Positions 26,981-34,288 of a DNA stretch of 64,000 nucleotides are shown in pieces. A model generated the notes under the pieces. That model saw nothing but the letters and a program-made list of their open reading frames with translations. It had not been told where the DNA came from and searched no databases. A program made the position numbers and the translations under genes. This DNA comes from a virus. Taxonomy: Duplodnaviria; Caudoviricetes. Position 1 is the first letter of the stretch. The number at the start of each line of letters is the position of its first letter. The stretch covers positions 9,146 to 73,145 of the IMG/VR virus record IMGVR_UViG_3300046131_000022. One strand, 5' to 3'.

Positions 26981-27018
26981 TGCTAAGATAATCCTCAACA
27001 TTGTTGAGGATTATTTTT
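26981..27018 (+). promoter_or_regulatory. Extended -10 overlapping an RBS-occluding hairpin
   Basis: TGcTAAGAT 26981-89; 12-bp stem 26988-99/27003-14 holds GAGGA; TTTT then ATG. Confidence 0.6.
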
Positions 27019-27759
27019 ATGTCTAAAAAAACACGTATTGACTTCCAAAAATGGTTAATAGCTAAAGGTTGTTTTATAGGTAACTCTGGAGCAGACGGAA
27101 CCATTGGTAAAGAAACTAAACAAGCTACATACAATATTTTTTTTGAATTGAAAGCAAAAGCAATCACAAACCAAGAATTGGAAAAAATTGCACAAACCAT
27201 CGGTGACACAACAGGAACAGCTCGTATTCGTGCTGTTGCAGAAGTGGAGTCAAACGGTGGCGGTTGGTTAAATTCAGGACATGTAAAAATATTGTATGAA
27301 CGTCACAAGTTTTGGAAATACAATGATGATAGTTCAGCCCCAAAATCTACTTTCTTTAATTACCCAGAAGGGGGGAATTACACTATAGATGCCAACAACA
27401 ACGATATAAACGATTCATGGGAAAAGTTATTAAGAGCCTGTGAATATGATCCTATGGGTGCATTTATGTCCGTTTCTATGGGTAAATTTCAAGTAATGGG
27501 TTTCCATTATAAGGATATGGGTTTTGAAACACCTTGGGACATGATGTTTTCTCTAGTTTCTAATGAGTTTAATCACTACCAATTATTGGCTAAATTTATT
27601 CAAAATAACAATTTAAAAAATGCTTTCTTGAAAATAAATGCAGACTCAGAAAATTGTCGGGCTTTCGCTAAAGGTTATAATGGTAGCGGTTATACCAGAA
27701 ATCATTATCATATTAAAATCGCCTTGGCATTTTTAAAATTTAAAAAGGCAGGTTACTAA
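27019..27759 (+). CDS. Endolysin, N-acetylmuramidase (DUF3380-like) with N-terminal peptidoglycan-binding segment
   Basis: FQKWL..G....ADG.IG.ET; AVAEVES, ILYERHKF, SMGKFQVMGFHY, FAKGYNG; ATG 27019 has the GAGGA RBS. Confidence 0.88.
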   Translation: MSKKTRIDFQKWLIAKGCFIGNSGADGTIGKETKQATYNIFFELKAKAITNQELEKIAQTIGDTTGTARIRAVAEVESNGGGWLNSGHVKILYERHKFWKYNDDSSAPKSTFFNYPEGGNYTIDANNNDINDSWEKLLRACEYDPMGAFMSVSMGKFQVMGFHYKDMGFETPWDMMFSLVSNEFNHYQLLAKFIQNNNLKNAFLKINADSENCRAFAKGYNGSGYTRNHYHIKIALAFLKFKKAGY

Positions 27760-27807
27760 ATGAAAAGTATTTTTTACTTTGAACTGGAAGGTTGGGACGA
27801 TTAAATT

Positions 27808-27918
27808 ATGAACAAACGAGAGGTTTTAGTTGATGTAGCTAAGGCTTTGATTCAATTAAGTATTTATTTGATTGATAAGCGACAAAAACGCAAAGAGGAA
27901 AAAGAAAATGAAAAGTAG
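27808..27918 (+). CDS. 36-aa amphipathic/cationic peptide (not in ORF track)
   Basis: MNKREVLVDVAKALIQLSIYLIDKRQKRKEEKENEK directly after endolysin. Confidence 0.4.
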   Translation: MNKREVLVDVAKALIQLSIYLIDKRQKRKEEKENEK

Positions 27919-27920
27919 TG

Positions 27921-27949
27921 TTGACGAACGTTGGGACTTATAATAATCT
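27921..27949 (+). promoter_or_regulatory. Sigma70-type promoter of the ncRNA/tRNA operon
   Basis: TTGACG-17 bp-TAATCT. Confidence 0.7.
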
Positions 27950-27962
27950 TAGTCTCATGAAG

Positions 27963-28266
27963 TCGAACTACTGAGAAATCAGTAGTTCGATTTTCTTAGC
28001 CAAAGTTTAATTATCCCTCAGAAATTGAATTTTGGACTAAGAAAATCACCAATGAGTAGAAAAGCCCGAATCCCTATATGGTTAAGACTTTCTACAATAG
28101 TCTGTGGATACCAGCTTGGTAACAAGTAACGCCTGTTTGGGGACTGCATACAAACCAAATCAGCAAGTAAGTGAAAAGCTTACAAGTGATTTTCTTATAA
28201 CTTTGAAACACCTACTGACCGAGTAAAAGTAAAGTCAAATCTTTATTGTTGAATGGAGGTAGGTGT
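27963..28266 (+). ncRNA. Structured ncRNA module(s) A/B, family unknown
   Basis: 12-bp GAAA hairpin 27963-90; 12-bp helix 28038-49/28186-97 closing four internal hairpins incl. CTTG-GTAA-CAAG; 9-bp helix 28208-16/28258-66; no ORF. Confidence 0.55.
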
Positions 28267-28280
28267 GGATAAGAAAGTTT

Positions 28281-28438
28281 ATTTAGGGAAGCAAACAAAG
28301 TGGCGCAAACCACACAACATTGGTCATGAACAAGTTGTGCAGGGAGCAAAATGGCGGTAGCTAAATTGGTTAAAGCAGCCGAGCCATTCGGAAGATTATT
28401 GGTTCAAATCCAATCTGCACCGTTTGTTTCACCTAAGT
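28281..28438 (+). ncRNA. Structured RNA containing a tRNA-like domain
   Basis: 16-bp closing helix; inside, D arm, anticodon arm with 5-nt loop GCCAT, T arm ATTGG-TTCAAAT-CCAAT, 4-bp acceptor remnant. Confidence 0.6.
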
Positions 28439-28498
28439 AATTTGATTATTTAATAAATTAATTTAAAAATAATTAATTTAACTGATTCAAGTAGCTTA

Positions 28499-28826
28499 AA
28501 TAAACAATCAAAAGTTGTTTATTCAAAGTGAAGAATGACAATAACCTAATAAGTCGTTAAAAGGTAGTTGGTGACTTAATCACTGTCGCAGAACTGGACC
28601 CAAATAAAAGTCTGACTTTTATTTCTGTTGACAAGCTTTGAACCGAGCTTTGATTGCGTAATACAATCAGAAAGTTTCCTAATCAGTTACTAGGTTCAAA
28701 CATAAGCTTGTAATTTATTGGCAAAATAACTTGGGTAAGACCAAGGGGTACAAACGAGTTGCAACTCGCTTGGAGCAGAAAAATCTACAACCATGCCAAG
28801 GTTGGTAAATTACAAGACTTATGTTT
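28499..28826 (+). ncRNA. Structured ncRNA module E, family unknown
   Basis: 20-bp helix 28698-717/28806-26 (one bulge) closing a junction; further helices at 28499-523, 28602-24 and 28631-711. Confidence 0.55.
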
Positions 28827-28828
28827 AT

Positions 28829-28904
28829 TGCTTCATAGCTCAGTTGGTAGAGCAACGGACTGTTAATCCGTGGGTCACACGTTCGAACCGTGTTGAAGCA
28901 GCCA
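28829..28904 (+). tRNA. tRNA-Asn (GTT)
   Basis: Full cloverleaf TGCTTCA/TGAAGCA, loop CT-GTT-AA, TTCGAAC, encoded CCA. Confidence 0.95.
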
Positions 28905-29063
28905 TTTACTTAGAGAAGAAATCTGGAAAGTACGACGGTACGTTAAACAACATAAACTAGGACATGAGCGAGGTTCAAACCCTCAACATTTGGTTATGGC
29001 GTTCCGAAAACTGCAGATTGTTTGTGTTGAATATTTATTCTCAGATTTCTTCGTCTAAGTAAA
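28905..29063 (+). ncRNA. 159-nt rod-like ncRNA filling the Asn-CAT tRNA spacer
   Basis: 21-bp Watson-Crick terminal helix with one bulge; inner 10-bp helix; T-loop hairpin GAGG-TTCAAAC-CCTC. Confidence 0.65.
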
Positions 29064-29140
29064 TTTCCTATAGCTCAGTTGGTCAGAGCAGCGGACTCAT
29101 AATTCGTTGGTCACAGGTTCAAGTCCTGTTGGGGAAACCA
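29064..29140 (+). tRNA. tRNA-CAT (Ile2-like or elongator Met)
   Basis: Cloverleaf, loop CT-CAT-AA, CCA; C4:G69 and C5:G68 as in TilS substrates; lacks initiator GGG/CCC. Confidence 0.85.
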
Positions 29141-29147
29141 CTTAAAA

Positions 29148-29224
29148 GGCTCTGTAGCTCAGTTGGATAGAGCATCCGCCTTCTAAGCGGATGGTCACAG
29201 GTTCAAGTCCTGTCAGGGTCGCCA
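29148..29224 (+). tRNA. tRNA-Arg (TCT)
   Basis: Cloverleaf GGCTCTG/CAGGGTC, loop CT-TCT-AA, CCA. Confidence 0.95.
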
Positions 29225-29235
29225 TTTTTACTTTT

Positions 29236-29311
29236 GCTCGAATAGCTCAGTTGGTAGAGCAGTAACCCGATAAGTTATTGGTCACAGGTTCAAGTCCTGT
29301 AGGTAGTACCA
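29236..29311 (+). pseudogene. Degenerate tRNA-Ile (GAT)
   Basis: Intact D, anticodon and T arms and CCA, but acceptor pairs 4-7 mismatched (CGAA vs AGGT) and C at position 33. Confidence 0.7.
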
Positions 29312-29319
29312 AATTTTAG

Positions 29320-29346
29320 AAGTCCGTTAATTCGGGCTTATTTTTT
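29320..29346 (+). terminator. Terminator of the ncRNA/tRNA operon
   Basis: AAGTCCG-TTAATT-CGGGCTT then ATTTTTT. Confidence 0.65.
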
Positions 29347-29363
29347 AACTGAAGGAAACCAAA

Positions 29364-29840
29364 ATGAAAGAGAACTCTAATCTAACTGTAGTATTTTCAC
29401 CAGAAGCTATTGCCAATCAAATAGCCAACCACTTAATACAATTTGAGGAAAATATAAAAAAGTTTGGTGTTTCTAAAATATTGGAACCAACGAGAAAATT
29501 GTTTGAGCAAAGAACAGCACCCCTATTTGCTGAAACAGTAATTGAGAATATGGAAGAAAATATGTGGGACCCTGAAAGCCCAGATTCCGAACAAGTGAAA
29601 AAGTTACAAAACTCAGCCATTTTCTCAGCCCTGTCAAACAACAACTTAGTGTTAGCCGAGCACTTAGAAAAGAATGTTTGCTTCATTACTGTTCAACAAG
29701 AACTTAAAAAATATTTGGAACAATGTAATTTCAACAAACAAATTTATGGTGAATACTTAAATGAGTTGAAAAAAATCATTCAAGAAGTTAAACTGCGATT
29801 TAACTTAGTTCAAGATCAAGGCAATTTTTTCTTGAATTAA
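29364..29840 (+). CDS. Hypothetical helical protein
   Basis: 158 aa, AAGGA RBS. Confidence 0.7.
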   Translation: MKENSNLTVVFSPEAIANQIANHLIQFEENIKKFGVSKILEPTRKLFEQRTAPLFAETVIENMEENMWDPESPDSEQVKKLQNSAIFSALSNNNLVLAEHLEKNVCFITVQQELKKYLEQCNFNKQIYGEYLNELKKIIQEVKLRFNLVQDQGNFFLN

Positions 29841-33138: not shown

Positions 33139-33597
33139 ATGGCTTCGGGAAAGGCAACCGAATTAAAAACCTGCCAGATGTTGAGGGAATACTATAAAAC
33201 AGCAGCTTCAATTCAGCGACTACCTGATAAATTTGACACAGGTAAATTTGAAGATGTTAGACCAAGTGATTTTTTGATTGTTTTAAACAGAACTTCAGTC
33301 AAAGTAGGTGAAGCAACTACTTATTTTGTTGAGTGTAAAGAGTCAGAAAAACCCAAGACAAGCTACTCTATCTCTGGAACTTTTCGTAAAGGTCAAGTTC
33401 AAGGCATGATTAGAGCTGTGCAGTTGAAAATACCTTATTTTGTTGTGTTTAATATTTTAAGCACACAAGAAATTTTCTTAGTTCCAAGTATTGAAATTTT
33501 AAAGTGTTTGAACGAAGGAAAAAAGTCGATCTCGATGGAGATCATTAAAAACCACACATGGCTACAAGGAAATCTTTATGACTACTATCTCAAATGA
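33139..33597 (+). CDS. Holliday junction resolvase-like PD-(D/E)XK nuclease (RecU-like)
   Basis: PSDF...FVECKE, then Q..M...Y.V.F pattern. Confidence 0.75.
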   Translation: MASGKATELKTCQMLREYYKTAASIQRLPDKFDTGKFEDVRPSDFLIVLNRTSVKVGEATTYFVECKESEKPKTSYSISGTFRKGQVQGMIRAVQLKIPYFVVFNILSTQEIFLVPSIEILKCLNEGKKSISMEIIKNHTWLQGNLYDYYLK

Positions 33598-34288
33598 AAA
33601 ACAATATCGCCATTTTATGGTTGACTGTGAAACTTTAGGAACACTACCAAACAGAAATCCTGTTTTACAAATAGCTGTTGTGCATTTCAATCCAGAAAGT
33701 TTTGATGCTTTAGAATCTTTTGAATGTTTTCTACCTTTGGCTGAGCAGTTAAAAATGCAGCGTATACCAGACCAAGGCACGGTCAATTGGTGGAAAAAGC
33801 AAGATCCGAAAGTGTCAGAAGTAATTTTCGGTGGTGTAGCAAAAGCTCCACCTTTGAAAAATCAATTAGAAGAATTATCTAATTGGATTGCAAGCAGTTG
33901 TAAACTAGACAATGGTTTTGCAGAATCAGTTTTCTGGGCTAAACCTGCAGCATTCGACTACCCTTTTATTGATGGATTATTTGTGGAGTCAGGCATTCCA
34001 AGTCCTTTTCACTTCCGTAAAGTTGTCGATATACAATCTTATATTATTGGTGCATTCAAACAAACGCATTATGTTTTAAACCATTATCAGGCGACACATC
34101 ATGCTTGTGTAGAATCTTATTGGGCTTGCTTTGAAGAAACTAAGAGAAAGTTGAAAGGTCGAGATAACGCACATAACGCTGCTGCAGACTGCTTATTTCA
34201 ACTTGAATGGTTAAAGGAAGCTATTGTGAACTGCACTCAGTATATGAGTGAGGAAGGTCTTAAAAAGACTTTGAATCGCAAAAATTAA
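33578..34288 (+). CDS. DEDDh 3'-5' exonuclease (Rv2179c-like)
   Basis: VDCETLG, WAKP..FDYPF, HNAAADC motifs. Confidence 0.85.
   Translation: MTTISNEKQYRHFMVDCETLGTLPNRNPVLQIAVVHFNPESFDALESFECFLPLAEQLKMQRIPDQGTVNWWKKQDPKVSEVIFGGVAKAPPLKNQLEELSNWIASSCKLDNGFAESVFWAKPAAFDYPFIDGLFVESGIPSPFHFRKVVDIQSYIIGAFKQTHYVLNHYQATHHACVESYWACFEETKRKLKGRDNAHNAAADCLFQLEWLKEAIVNCTQYMSEEGLKKTLNRKN

Follow-up and report, generated by a model that had tools for sequence, protein, structure and literature searches.

Why would a tailed phage keep, among genuine tRNA genes, a tRNA-shaped RNA that can be neither charged nor used for decoding and that is locked inside a long helix? The locus that raises this question lies at 28281-28438 of a 64,000-nt stretch of phage DNA (positions 9146-73145 of an IMG/VR virus record of 73 kb; 35% G+C), which we call the window. 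An ORF scan of the window gave a tailed-phage set of genes, including those for a major head protein, an endolysin (PF11860 muramidase), a family A DNA polymerase, an SbcCD-like nuclease and a ribonucleotide reductase. The source phage is metagenomic and related to Acinetobacter siphophages, and its probable host range is Acinetobacter or relatives.

The locus is part of an RNA island of ~1.4 kb without a long ORF, flanked by the endolysin and DNA polymerase genes. The endolysin gene (27001-27759) lies directly 5' of a conserved 36-codon ORF (27808-27918), the left neighbour of the non-coding stretch; because an identical protein is encoded on six contigs from several runs, this ORF is probably a genuine small gene, with which the true left edge of the non-coding island is marked. 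The island starts with a promoter-like site (27921-27949, plus strand), in which TTGACG is followed by the −10 candidates TATAAT or AATAAT at a spacing of 12 or 15 nt. A consensus promoter scan did not flag the site because of its spacing, and a promoter role is suggested by its sequence; TTGACGA is kept in the relatives L004, L003 and L030 and in the TCUP2199 group of Acinetobacter phages. The island ends with an intrinsic terminator-like hairpin (29320-29346, plus strand), and its right neighbour is a 158-codon ORF from 29364. ARAGORN and Rfam agree on three genuine tRNAs on the plus strand, tRNA-Asn-GUU (28829-28904), tRNA-Met-CAU (29064-29140) and tRNA-Arg-UCU (29148-29224), with Rfam scores of 65-70 bits, and Rfam finds two weaker tRNA matches in the island (28353-28422 and 29243-29300), the first of which is the subject of this analysis. 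Further away, ~5 kb downstream of the island, the window encodes a protein with an Rv2179c-like 3'-5' exoribonuclease domain (33578-34288).

The tRNA-like body and its closing helix

A preliminary description of the locus had proposed scoring the tRNA-like body (28353-28422, plus strand) with tRNA finders, and the outcome was divided: the Rfam tRNA model (RF00005) aligns over its full length with 36.2 bits, above the gathering score of 29, but ARAGORN at default settings makes no tRNA call. By this model score the unit belongs to the tRNA family, as a defective derivative. The parts which that description had listed (a D arm, a 4-bp anticodon stem with the 5-nt loop GCCAU, a 5-nt variable loop, a T arm, a poor acceptor and no CCA) were all found in the sequence and in the Rfam alignment. 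The D arm GCU-AAAUUGGUUAA-AGC (28360-28376) has three pairs and an A13.A22 mismatch; the anticodon stem CCGA/UCGG (28379-82/28388-91) carries the short loop (28383-87), from which U33 is missing; the variable loop is AGAUU (28393-97), and the T arm AUUGG-UUCAAAU-CCAAU (28398-28414) has a perfect 5-bp stem. The acceptor 3' strand (28415-21) is followed by G28422 at the discriminator position, and because the 3' side reads CUGCACC-G-UUU there is no CCA; this G-UUU end is paired into the closing helix. The acceptor stem is weak in every register, with four, five or six pairs, and a 7-bp acceptor was not found. The Infernal register gives GG-CGG/CUG(CA)CC (five pairs, 2-nt bulge) and that of the preliminary description GCAG/CUGC (four pairs), while ARAGORN at a lowered threshold pairs GUGCAG (28337-42) with CUGCAC (28415-20), i.e. 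six pairs with a 15-nt insert before U8. The tertiary nucleotides of elbow and core are all present (U8, A14, A15:U48, G18 G19, A21, G53-C61, T54-A58, U55 and C56). Compared with a functional tRNA (RF00005), the anticodon-loop, acceptor and CCA features are thus lost and the D arm, T arm and elbow are kept; only the parts needed for decoding and charging are damaged, and all stems and tertiary nucleotides of the L-shape are intact. The claim that the unit cannot decode or be charged and yet retains its elbow was borne out by the 5-nt loop, the defective acceptor and the lack of CCA on the one side and the complete tertiary set on the other.

The lowered-threshold call bears on another reading, that of a working but unusual tRNA, e.g. 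a class II tRNA-Leu(UAA) in the register 28335-28423. ARAGORN -ps90 makes this call in the window and in L023, L024, L026 and L028, and the 6-bp GUGCAG/CUGCAC stem is real. However, the anticodon stem of this register is only 3 bp long, its D arm is poor, and the evident D arm is made to serve as an anticodon arm; the register is not called at default settings, has no CCA and has a base-paired 3' trailer, and it is the Infernal register that is homologous to real tRNA-Met genes. We regard a working tRNA as hardly credible here. An intron-containing or permuted tRNA was rejected, as the loop is shortened and not interrupted, and ARAGORN and Rfam detected no tmRNA, i.e. no tRNA-like ends together with a tag reading frame.

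When 50,697 phage records were searched by BLAST with the island, 28357-28411 matched genes annotated as tRNA-Met in Salmonella, Escherichia and Klebsiella phages at 80-82% identity; for the Salmonella and Escherichia genes it is ~82% over 55-57 nt. In an alignment with one of these genes, the unit agrees in its D arm and anticodon stem, in the T loop and in most of the variable loop, and the anticodon loop has changed from CUCAUAA to GCCAU, which is 2 nt shorter and retains CAU. The unit is no copy of the phage's own tRNA-Met. From this alignment, and with the own tRNA-Met set aside as the source, the unit derives from a tRNA(CAU), either Met or Ile2 in type, and has been stripped of its decoding and charging features. 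A remnant of an attP site was rejected, since there is no integrase and the tRNA body is nearly complete.

The preliminary description had also claimed a 16-bp helix with one bulge that closes the tRNA-like unit and two hairpins, and direct reading, duplex energy and the minimum free energy (MFE) fold all support it. The 5' strand of this helix (28279-28296, plus strand) pairs with a 3' strand (28422-28440, plus strand) that begins at the discriminator position: 28281-87/28432-38 and 28288-96/28422-30 give 16 pairs with A28431 bulged, and two more pairs, to 28279/28440, lengthen the helix to 18 bp. Of the 2774 pairs of 30-mers with this spacing in the window, only two reach its duplex energy of −21.5 kcal/mol, the helix itself being one of them, which ranks it within the top 0.07%. 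The MFE fold of 28270-28450 (181 nt) includes the closing helix and both hairpins (z = −3.4; none of 200 shuffles as stable). Hairpin 1 (28300-28313, plus strand) is GUGG-CGCAAA-CCAC; hairpin 2 (28313-28339, plus strand) is CACAAC...GUUGUG with an inner UUG/CAA, and has nucleotides of its 3' strand in common with GUGCAG, the acceptor strand of the alternative register. A single-stranded linker (28340-28352, plus strand), the most variable stretch of the module, leads to the tRNA-like body. The tRNA-like part itself refolds differently in the MFE structure (−49.1 versus −42.9 to −44.6 kcal/mol for cloverleaf-type folds, a gap of 4.5-6 kcal/mol). A cloverleaf is likewise missing from the MFE folds of two of the window's three genuine tRNAs, and hence this counts as weak evidence against a cloverleaf.

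Distribution and variation among relatives

Relatives were found by protein-anchored searches and exact-protein look-ups and form a graded series; an exact look-up of the endolysin protein gave no match owing to a start-codon difference. The module (28279-28440) with its 5-nt loop is present in L028 (~98% identical), which also has the upstream block holding the neighbouring core RNA, and in L024/L027 (a separate run) and L023 and L026 (runs with similar accessions), in which the core block is absent. Contig X2 (~97% identical) has the module with a 7-nt loop, and the core block. In L004, whose DNA polymerase is 83% identical, 28198-28462 is missing and the module with it, and the core block is present and ~99% identical; the more distant L003 and L030 have neither module nor core block, and L029, also more distant, has no RNA island whatsoever. 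Among contigs with an endolysin homologue, L018 and L021 are, like L029, without the island, and L017 and L019 are too short to reach the module. Because the module is absent from L004, L003, L030 and also from cultured Acinetobacter phages, and the whole island from L029, the tRNA-like unit is, judging by this distribution, dispensable.

Roughly 16 public runs contain parts of the island, and the sample labels of the runs that hold the unit include leaf, faeces, bird, dust and wastewater. L023/L026, L024 and L028 come from different sequencing studies and carry a near-identical unit with an identical 5-nt loop; 28367-28437 is identical to the window in all of them, and the unit scores 37.1-38.7 bits with the Rfam tRNA model in L023, L024 and L028. 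Conservation in relatives, one of the checks named in the preliminary description, thus holds in four of them for the shrunken-loop unit together with the closing helix, with one more having a 7-nt loop that lacks U33; an intact tRNA with random decay and no closing helix, which would have spoken against the proposal, was seen at this site in no relative. Neither an exact pattern of the anticodon arm nor one of the T arm with acceptor had a match in IMG/VR, and the latter had none in one genome per GTDB species (185,579 species' genomes).

The module is gained or lost as a block, independently of the neighbouring core RNA and of tRNA-Asn, and tRNA sets differ between relatives. The core block missing in L023 and L024 (28003-28277) ends just 5' of the closing helix strand 28279-96, and in these two contigs the tRNA-like module lies directly 3' of the leader hairpin; the block missing in L004 (28198-28462) begins just 3' of the closing helix of the core. 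The closing helix is kept with or without the core block upstream, i.e. in two upstream contexts. Since blocks are present or absent separately among relatives, the island is, as far as these comparisons go, a mosaic of blocks that are gained and lost independently and that end just outside the closing helices of the modules. Such a pattern, together with terminal inverted repeats around 158 nt, would also be expected of a MITE-like insertion at the DNA level, whose repeats mimic an RNA helix. The element is, however, single copy, its arm has no second match in the window, the module patterns are unmatched in IMG/VR and in the 185,579 species' genomes, and the indel, bounded by 28198 and 28462, has other ends than the repeats, all of which makes such an insertion very improbable.

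The changes in X2 are known from a listing of 13 of that contig's 30 substitutions. Two single-base insertions turn its anticodon loop into the 7-nt CGCGCAU, with G33 and still no U33, so that loop length differs between close relatives (5 versus 7 nt). Among the substitutions listed, A13>U (28363, A.A to U-A) restores the 13-22 pair, G6>A (28356) turns G.U into A-U, four changes fall in the linker at 28340-44, of which those at 28340/41 give wobble pairs in the 6-bp acceptor register, and one change, at 28334, breaks a pair. Elsewhere, the U.G pair that the window has at 28282 is C-G in L023, L024, L028, X2 and X3, and 28344 is G>T in L023 and L028. Across the four distinct full sequences of the module, 43 of the 46 pairs are invariant, pairing is kept in 98.9% of cells and there are no double changes. 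The variable places are mostly in loops or the linker (28306, 28319, 28344 and 28366; in hairpin 1 only the loop position 28306) or are switches between wobble and Watson-Crick pairs (28282 and 28356), and L023 has outer pairs of the closing helix broken at 28285 and 28438. Changes at paired places thus mostly retain or improve pairing; this substitution pattern is the neutral expectation too, given transition bias, and the adjacent non-coding blocks are conserved at least as well as the module. Because relatives are 95-98% identical over the module, neither a double compensatory change nor a statistical signal of selection appears. Protein coding was rejected: there is no ORF, and the indels are not multiples of three. 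Read mapping in four runs left parts of the module without cover in X3, X4 and X6; in a wastewater run labelled RNA-Seq, which is probably DNA, the depth over 28354-28407 comes from the tRNAs of other organisms.

These data bear on a second reading, that the unit is a neutral relic: a tRNA(CAU) gene that was killed amid the rapid turnover of the tRNA island, when its loop lost 2 nt, its acceptor was damaged and its CCA disappeared, and that is too young for further decay, with a closing helix that is incidental or part of a leader RNA. Compensatory changes are not in excess, the loop is polymorphic in length and the unit is missing in more distant relatives, as a relic would have it, and because the variation is too small to reveal selection we hold a relic to be a real possibility, nearly as likely as the reading preferred below. 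Against it, damage is limited to the decoding and charging parts with the whole L-shape intact, a closing helix of such rare strength in the window (top 0.07%) persists both with and without an upstream core block, and the changes in X2 restore pairs rather than break them.

In L024, the DNA polymerase gene (L024:2154-5566) is split by an HNH_3 endonuclease ORF, which looks like a homing-endonuclease insertion; the polymerase of phage Mystique is annotated in pieces too.

The core RNA and other tRNA-like elements of the island

Outside the tRNA-like unit, the upstream block holds a separate cassette, a structured RNA core of ~160 nt (28036-28200, plus strand) closed by a 12-bp helix of its own (28038-49/28186-97). 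The core is ~99% identical in L004, where the flanks are much less alike, and ~73% identical in the A. baumannii phages TCUP2199, Mystique, EAb13 and fJoAci01 and in two metagenome contigs, where the homologues sit in the matching non-coding region between the endolysin and DNA polymerase genes, beside tRNA-Asn. In the consensus fold from an eight-sequence alignment, 16 of 43 pairs are changed on both sides and still pair; in the closing helix seven of nine predicted pairs are compensatory, and another stem is capped by an invariant GUAA loop. No Rfam family matches 28036-28200. Because the core covaries so strongly, the island must be taken, by comparative evidence, to encode at least one real structured RNA of no known class, and the core is probably the most novel object of the island. 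A scan with the core pattern found only the L004 contig in IMG/VR, and L012 (the same contig as L004), L013 and L014 in a metagenome collection; in GTDB genomes it gave one chance match, inside a transposase gene.

Upstream of the core lies a leader hairpin with a U-rich tail (27961-27999, plus strand), and the tail is able to pair with 28037-47; both the hairpin and the tail pairing show compensatory changes in L004. The stretch 28037-49 can pair either with the leader tail (27989-27999) or with 28186-28197, which closes the core. In L004 a compensatory change has turned an A-U pair of the upstream pairing into G-C, and covariation between phage groups is seen for the downstream pairing; the two alternatives may constitute an RNA switch.

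The island holds further defective or odd tRNA-like elements. A second defective unit, resembling tRNA-Ile-GAU (29232-29312, plus strand), has C33 in place of U33 and an acceptor with three of seven pairs, and keeps its CCA. Its Rfam match (29243-29300) scores 45.3 bits over model positions 8-63 only, ARAGORN calls it at a lowered threshold only, and it is conserved in L023 and L024 with 41-45 bits; over the 5' half it matches the tRNA-Thr of L003 exactly. The 159-nt spacer between tRNA-Asn and tRNA-Met (28905-29063) contains a T-arm-like element, GAGG-UUCAAAC-CCUC (28965-28990), which is the canonical GGUUCGAUUCC in L023 and L024. The tRNA-Asn gene itself comes and goes in an exact block of 81 nt (28824-28904) with TTTA at its flanks; it is missing in L028 and X2, which are ~97-98% identical to the window, and X2 also skips the junction between the Met and Arg tRNAs. 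For a relic, this richness of the island in tRNA debris and flux counts in favour, i.e. the acceptor-less unit 29232-29312, the T-arm remnant 28965-28990, the 81-nt tRNA-Asn block switching on and off in 98%-identical relatives, the junction skipped in X2 and the varying tRNA sets.

Related phages have odd tRNA-shaped RNAs as well. An RNA of ~159 nt at L009:1479-1641 (TCUP2199), L015:1481-1640 (EAb13) and L016:1452-1610 has a canonical T arm, a GCCA or CCCA end and ~85 extra nt in its body. Its 7-bp acceptor covaries (ATCTGGC/GCCAGAT versus GUCUGAC/GUCAGAC), and neither ARAGORN nor Rfam calls it. Because this RNA occurs in Acinetobacter phages, odd tRNA-shaped RNAs can be said to recur in such islands. 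In phage EAb13, moreover, ARAGORN finds at L015:1787-1866 a tRNA with anticodon CUA (labelled tRNA-Pyl) that is absent from the annotation of the record and may be an amber suppressor. The distant relative L030 (3700-3900) and L009 (2170-2330) have a non-coding block in common, with the segments ...ACUGCC.A.UUAGCGGUUGUG... and ...GUGUCACCUAC...GUGGUGAGAU..., which suggests a wider pool of exchangeable RNA modules that reaches from L030 to the TCUP2199 group.

Readings of the unit and likeness to known RNAs

The reading that we prefer, with a probability of roughly 0.45, is that the unit is a non-decoding, tRNA(CAU)-derived, tRNA-shaped domain that serves as a helix-closed structural cassette of a mosaic phage RNA/tRNA island; it is drawn from sequence comparison. 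Blocks bounded by modules, the covariation of the core and the recurrence of odd tRNA-like RNAs are counted for it, and the intact L-shape, the strong closing helix kept in two upstream contexts and the occurrence in runs labelled with different sample types favour retention. Counted against it are the want of double compensatory changes in the module, adjacent blocks that are at least as conserved, the absence of the unit from several relatives, a loop length that differs between close relatives and an MFE fold other than a cloverleaf. The preliminary description had suggested that the unit might be a domain of a larger RNA, and this stood: it is part of a larger putative non-coding transcription unit, in which the neighbouring module covaries. 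In the mechanism proposed, the island would be transcribed as a single precursor from ~27921 to the terminator at 29320-46, and host processing of the tRNA/rRNA type would free the modules, with RNase P or RNase E acting at the tRNAs and possibly RNase III at the long closing helices. The closing helix would hide both ends of the module, so that a stable RNA of ~160 nt persists, and this RNA would present a tRNA elbow to proteins that read elbows (RNase P, T/D-loop modification enzymes or a defence protein) while being barred from translation. A stronger form of the idea, in which the unit is a selected, helix-caged mimic of the tRNA elbow in a new class of island with exchangeable helix-closed cassettes (tRNAs, mimics and the core), freed by host enzymes and titrating a tRNA-binding factor or defence protein, is speculative and we think it unlikely.

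Phage tRNAs are known to counter tRNA-targeting defences, and the caged tRNA shape could, in line with a proposal of the preliminary description, be a decoy which competes for or inhibits a tRNA-targeting defence nuclease (such as PrrC, RloC, PARIS AriB or VapC-type toxins). An intact L-shape in an RNA that translation cannot consume, inside a phage tRNA island and with CAU retained in the loop, would suit such a role. Anticodon nucleases, however, read the anticodon loop, which here is shrunken, has no U33 and varies in length among close relatives, being the least conserved part; because this loop is the unconstrained part, a decoy fits poorly. No tRNA-repair or counter-defence gene was found among 20 window ORFs scanned, the unit is dispensable in relatives, and a literature search found no report of a phage tRNA-like decoy, and we take a decoy to be improbable.

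Among known RNAs, phage tRNA pseudogenes and defective tRNAs (RF00005 matches that gene finders reject) have much in common with the unit: an origin from a real tRNA, a place in a tRNA island, a score over the Rfam cut-off and the loss of acceptor, anticodon-loop and CCA features. They differ in that here the damage is found only in the decoding and charging parts, and a 16-18-bp helix encloses the unit with two hairpins, which move as a block. GOLLD and ROOL are large ornate RNAs of phages and prophages that lie near tRNA islands; GOLLD sometimes has a tRNA in a variable linker, its 5' region being variable and another region conserved (10.1101/2024.12.08.627333; PMC12990946). The present island is likewise a large structured non-coding RNA beside phage tRNAs, but its embedded unit is a defective tRNA, and it looks like a string of separately closed modules, not one fold. 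Scans with all of Rfam, which include GOLLD, gave no GOLLD or ROOL match at the gathering score over the window or at E up to 10 over 27800-29600, and in a ROOL search of the record none of six scored candidates reached E up to 10, the control genomes being silent too.

Elbow mimicry of the kind seen in the bacterial Y RNA YrlA (RF02553) was a parallel drawn in the preliminary description. YrlA also joins a non-chargeable tRNA-like elbow to a long helix, but the parallel failed on every feature that could be compared. The YrlA model has no match at 28281-28438 at E up to 10, and its weak matches in the island (21-27 bits against a cut-off of 69) all overlap true tRNAs. Among the 29 window ORFs scanned no Ro60/Rsr gene was found, and the Ro-binding bulge that the YrlA helix carries was not found in the present closing helix. 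mascRNA and MEN-beta (RF01684) likewise have a tRNA-like fold within a longer non-coding transcript, a signal for RNase P/Z processing and a non-canonical anticodon region; they are eukaryotic, whereas the present unit has both flanks paired, which would hinder the RNase Z and CCA steps, and the RF01684 model matches only tRNA-Arg in the island, with 19 bits. The tRNA cluster of phage T4 also gives rise to 'species 1 and 2' (rnaC and rnaD), small stable RNAs of obscure function that are co-transcribed and co-processed with the phage tRNAs; these are a lead for comparison with the unit, by description and not by sequence. Unlike the viral 3' tRNA-like structures of the TYMV type, the unit sits within the island and lacks a chargeable CCA end. 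By analogy, it would work most like processing or handle elements of the mascRNA type and the tRNAs embedded in GOLLD.

If the unit is a relic only, it still offers a clean snapshot of the death of a phage tRNA gene and of cassette shuffling. If it is functional, it would be a case from a bacterial virus of a tRNA-derived shape mimic deliberately held out of translation, and it would provide a handle on the role of large structured RNAs found beside phage tRNAs, such as GOLLD, ROOL and the present island. The surrounding island, with its separately closed modules, at least one of which covaries and belongs to no known family, is the more valuable lead, and because elements of it are common to cultured Acinetobacter baumannii phages, experiments on it are possible.
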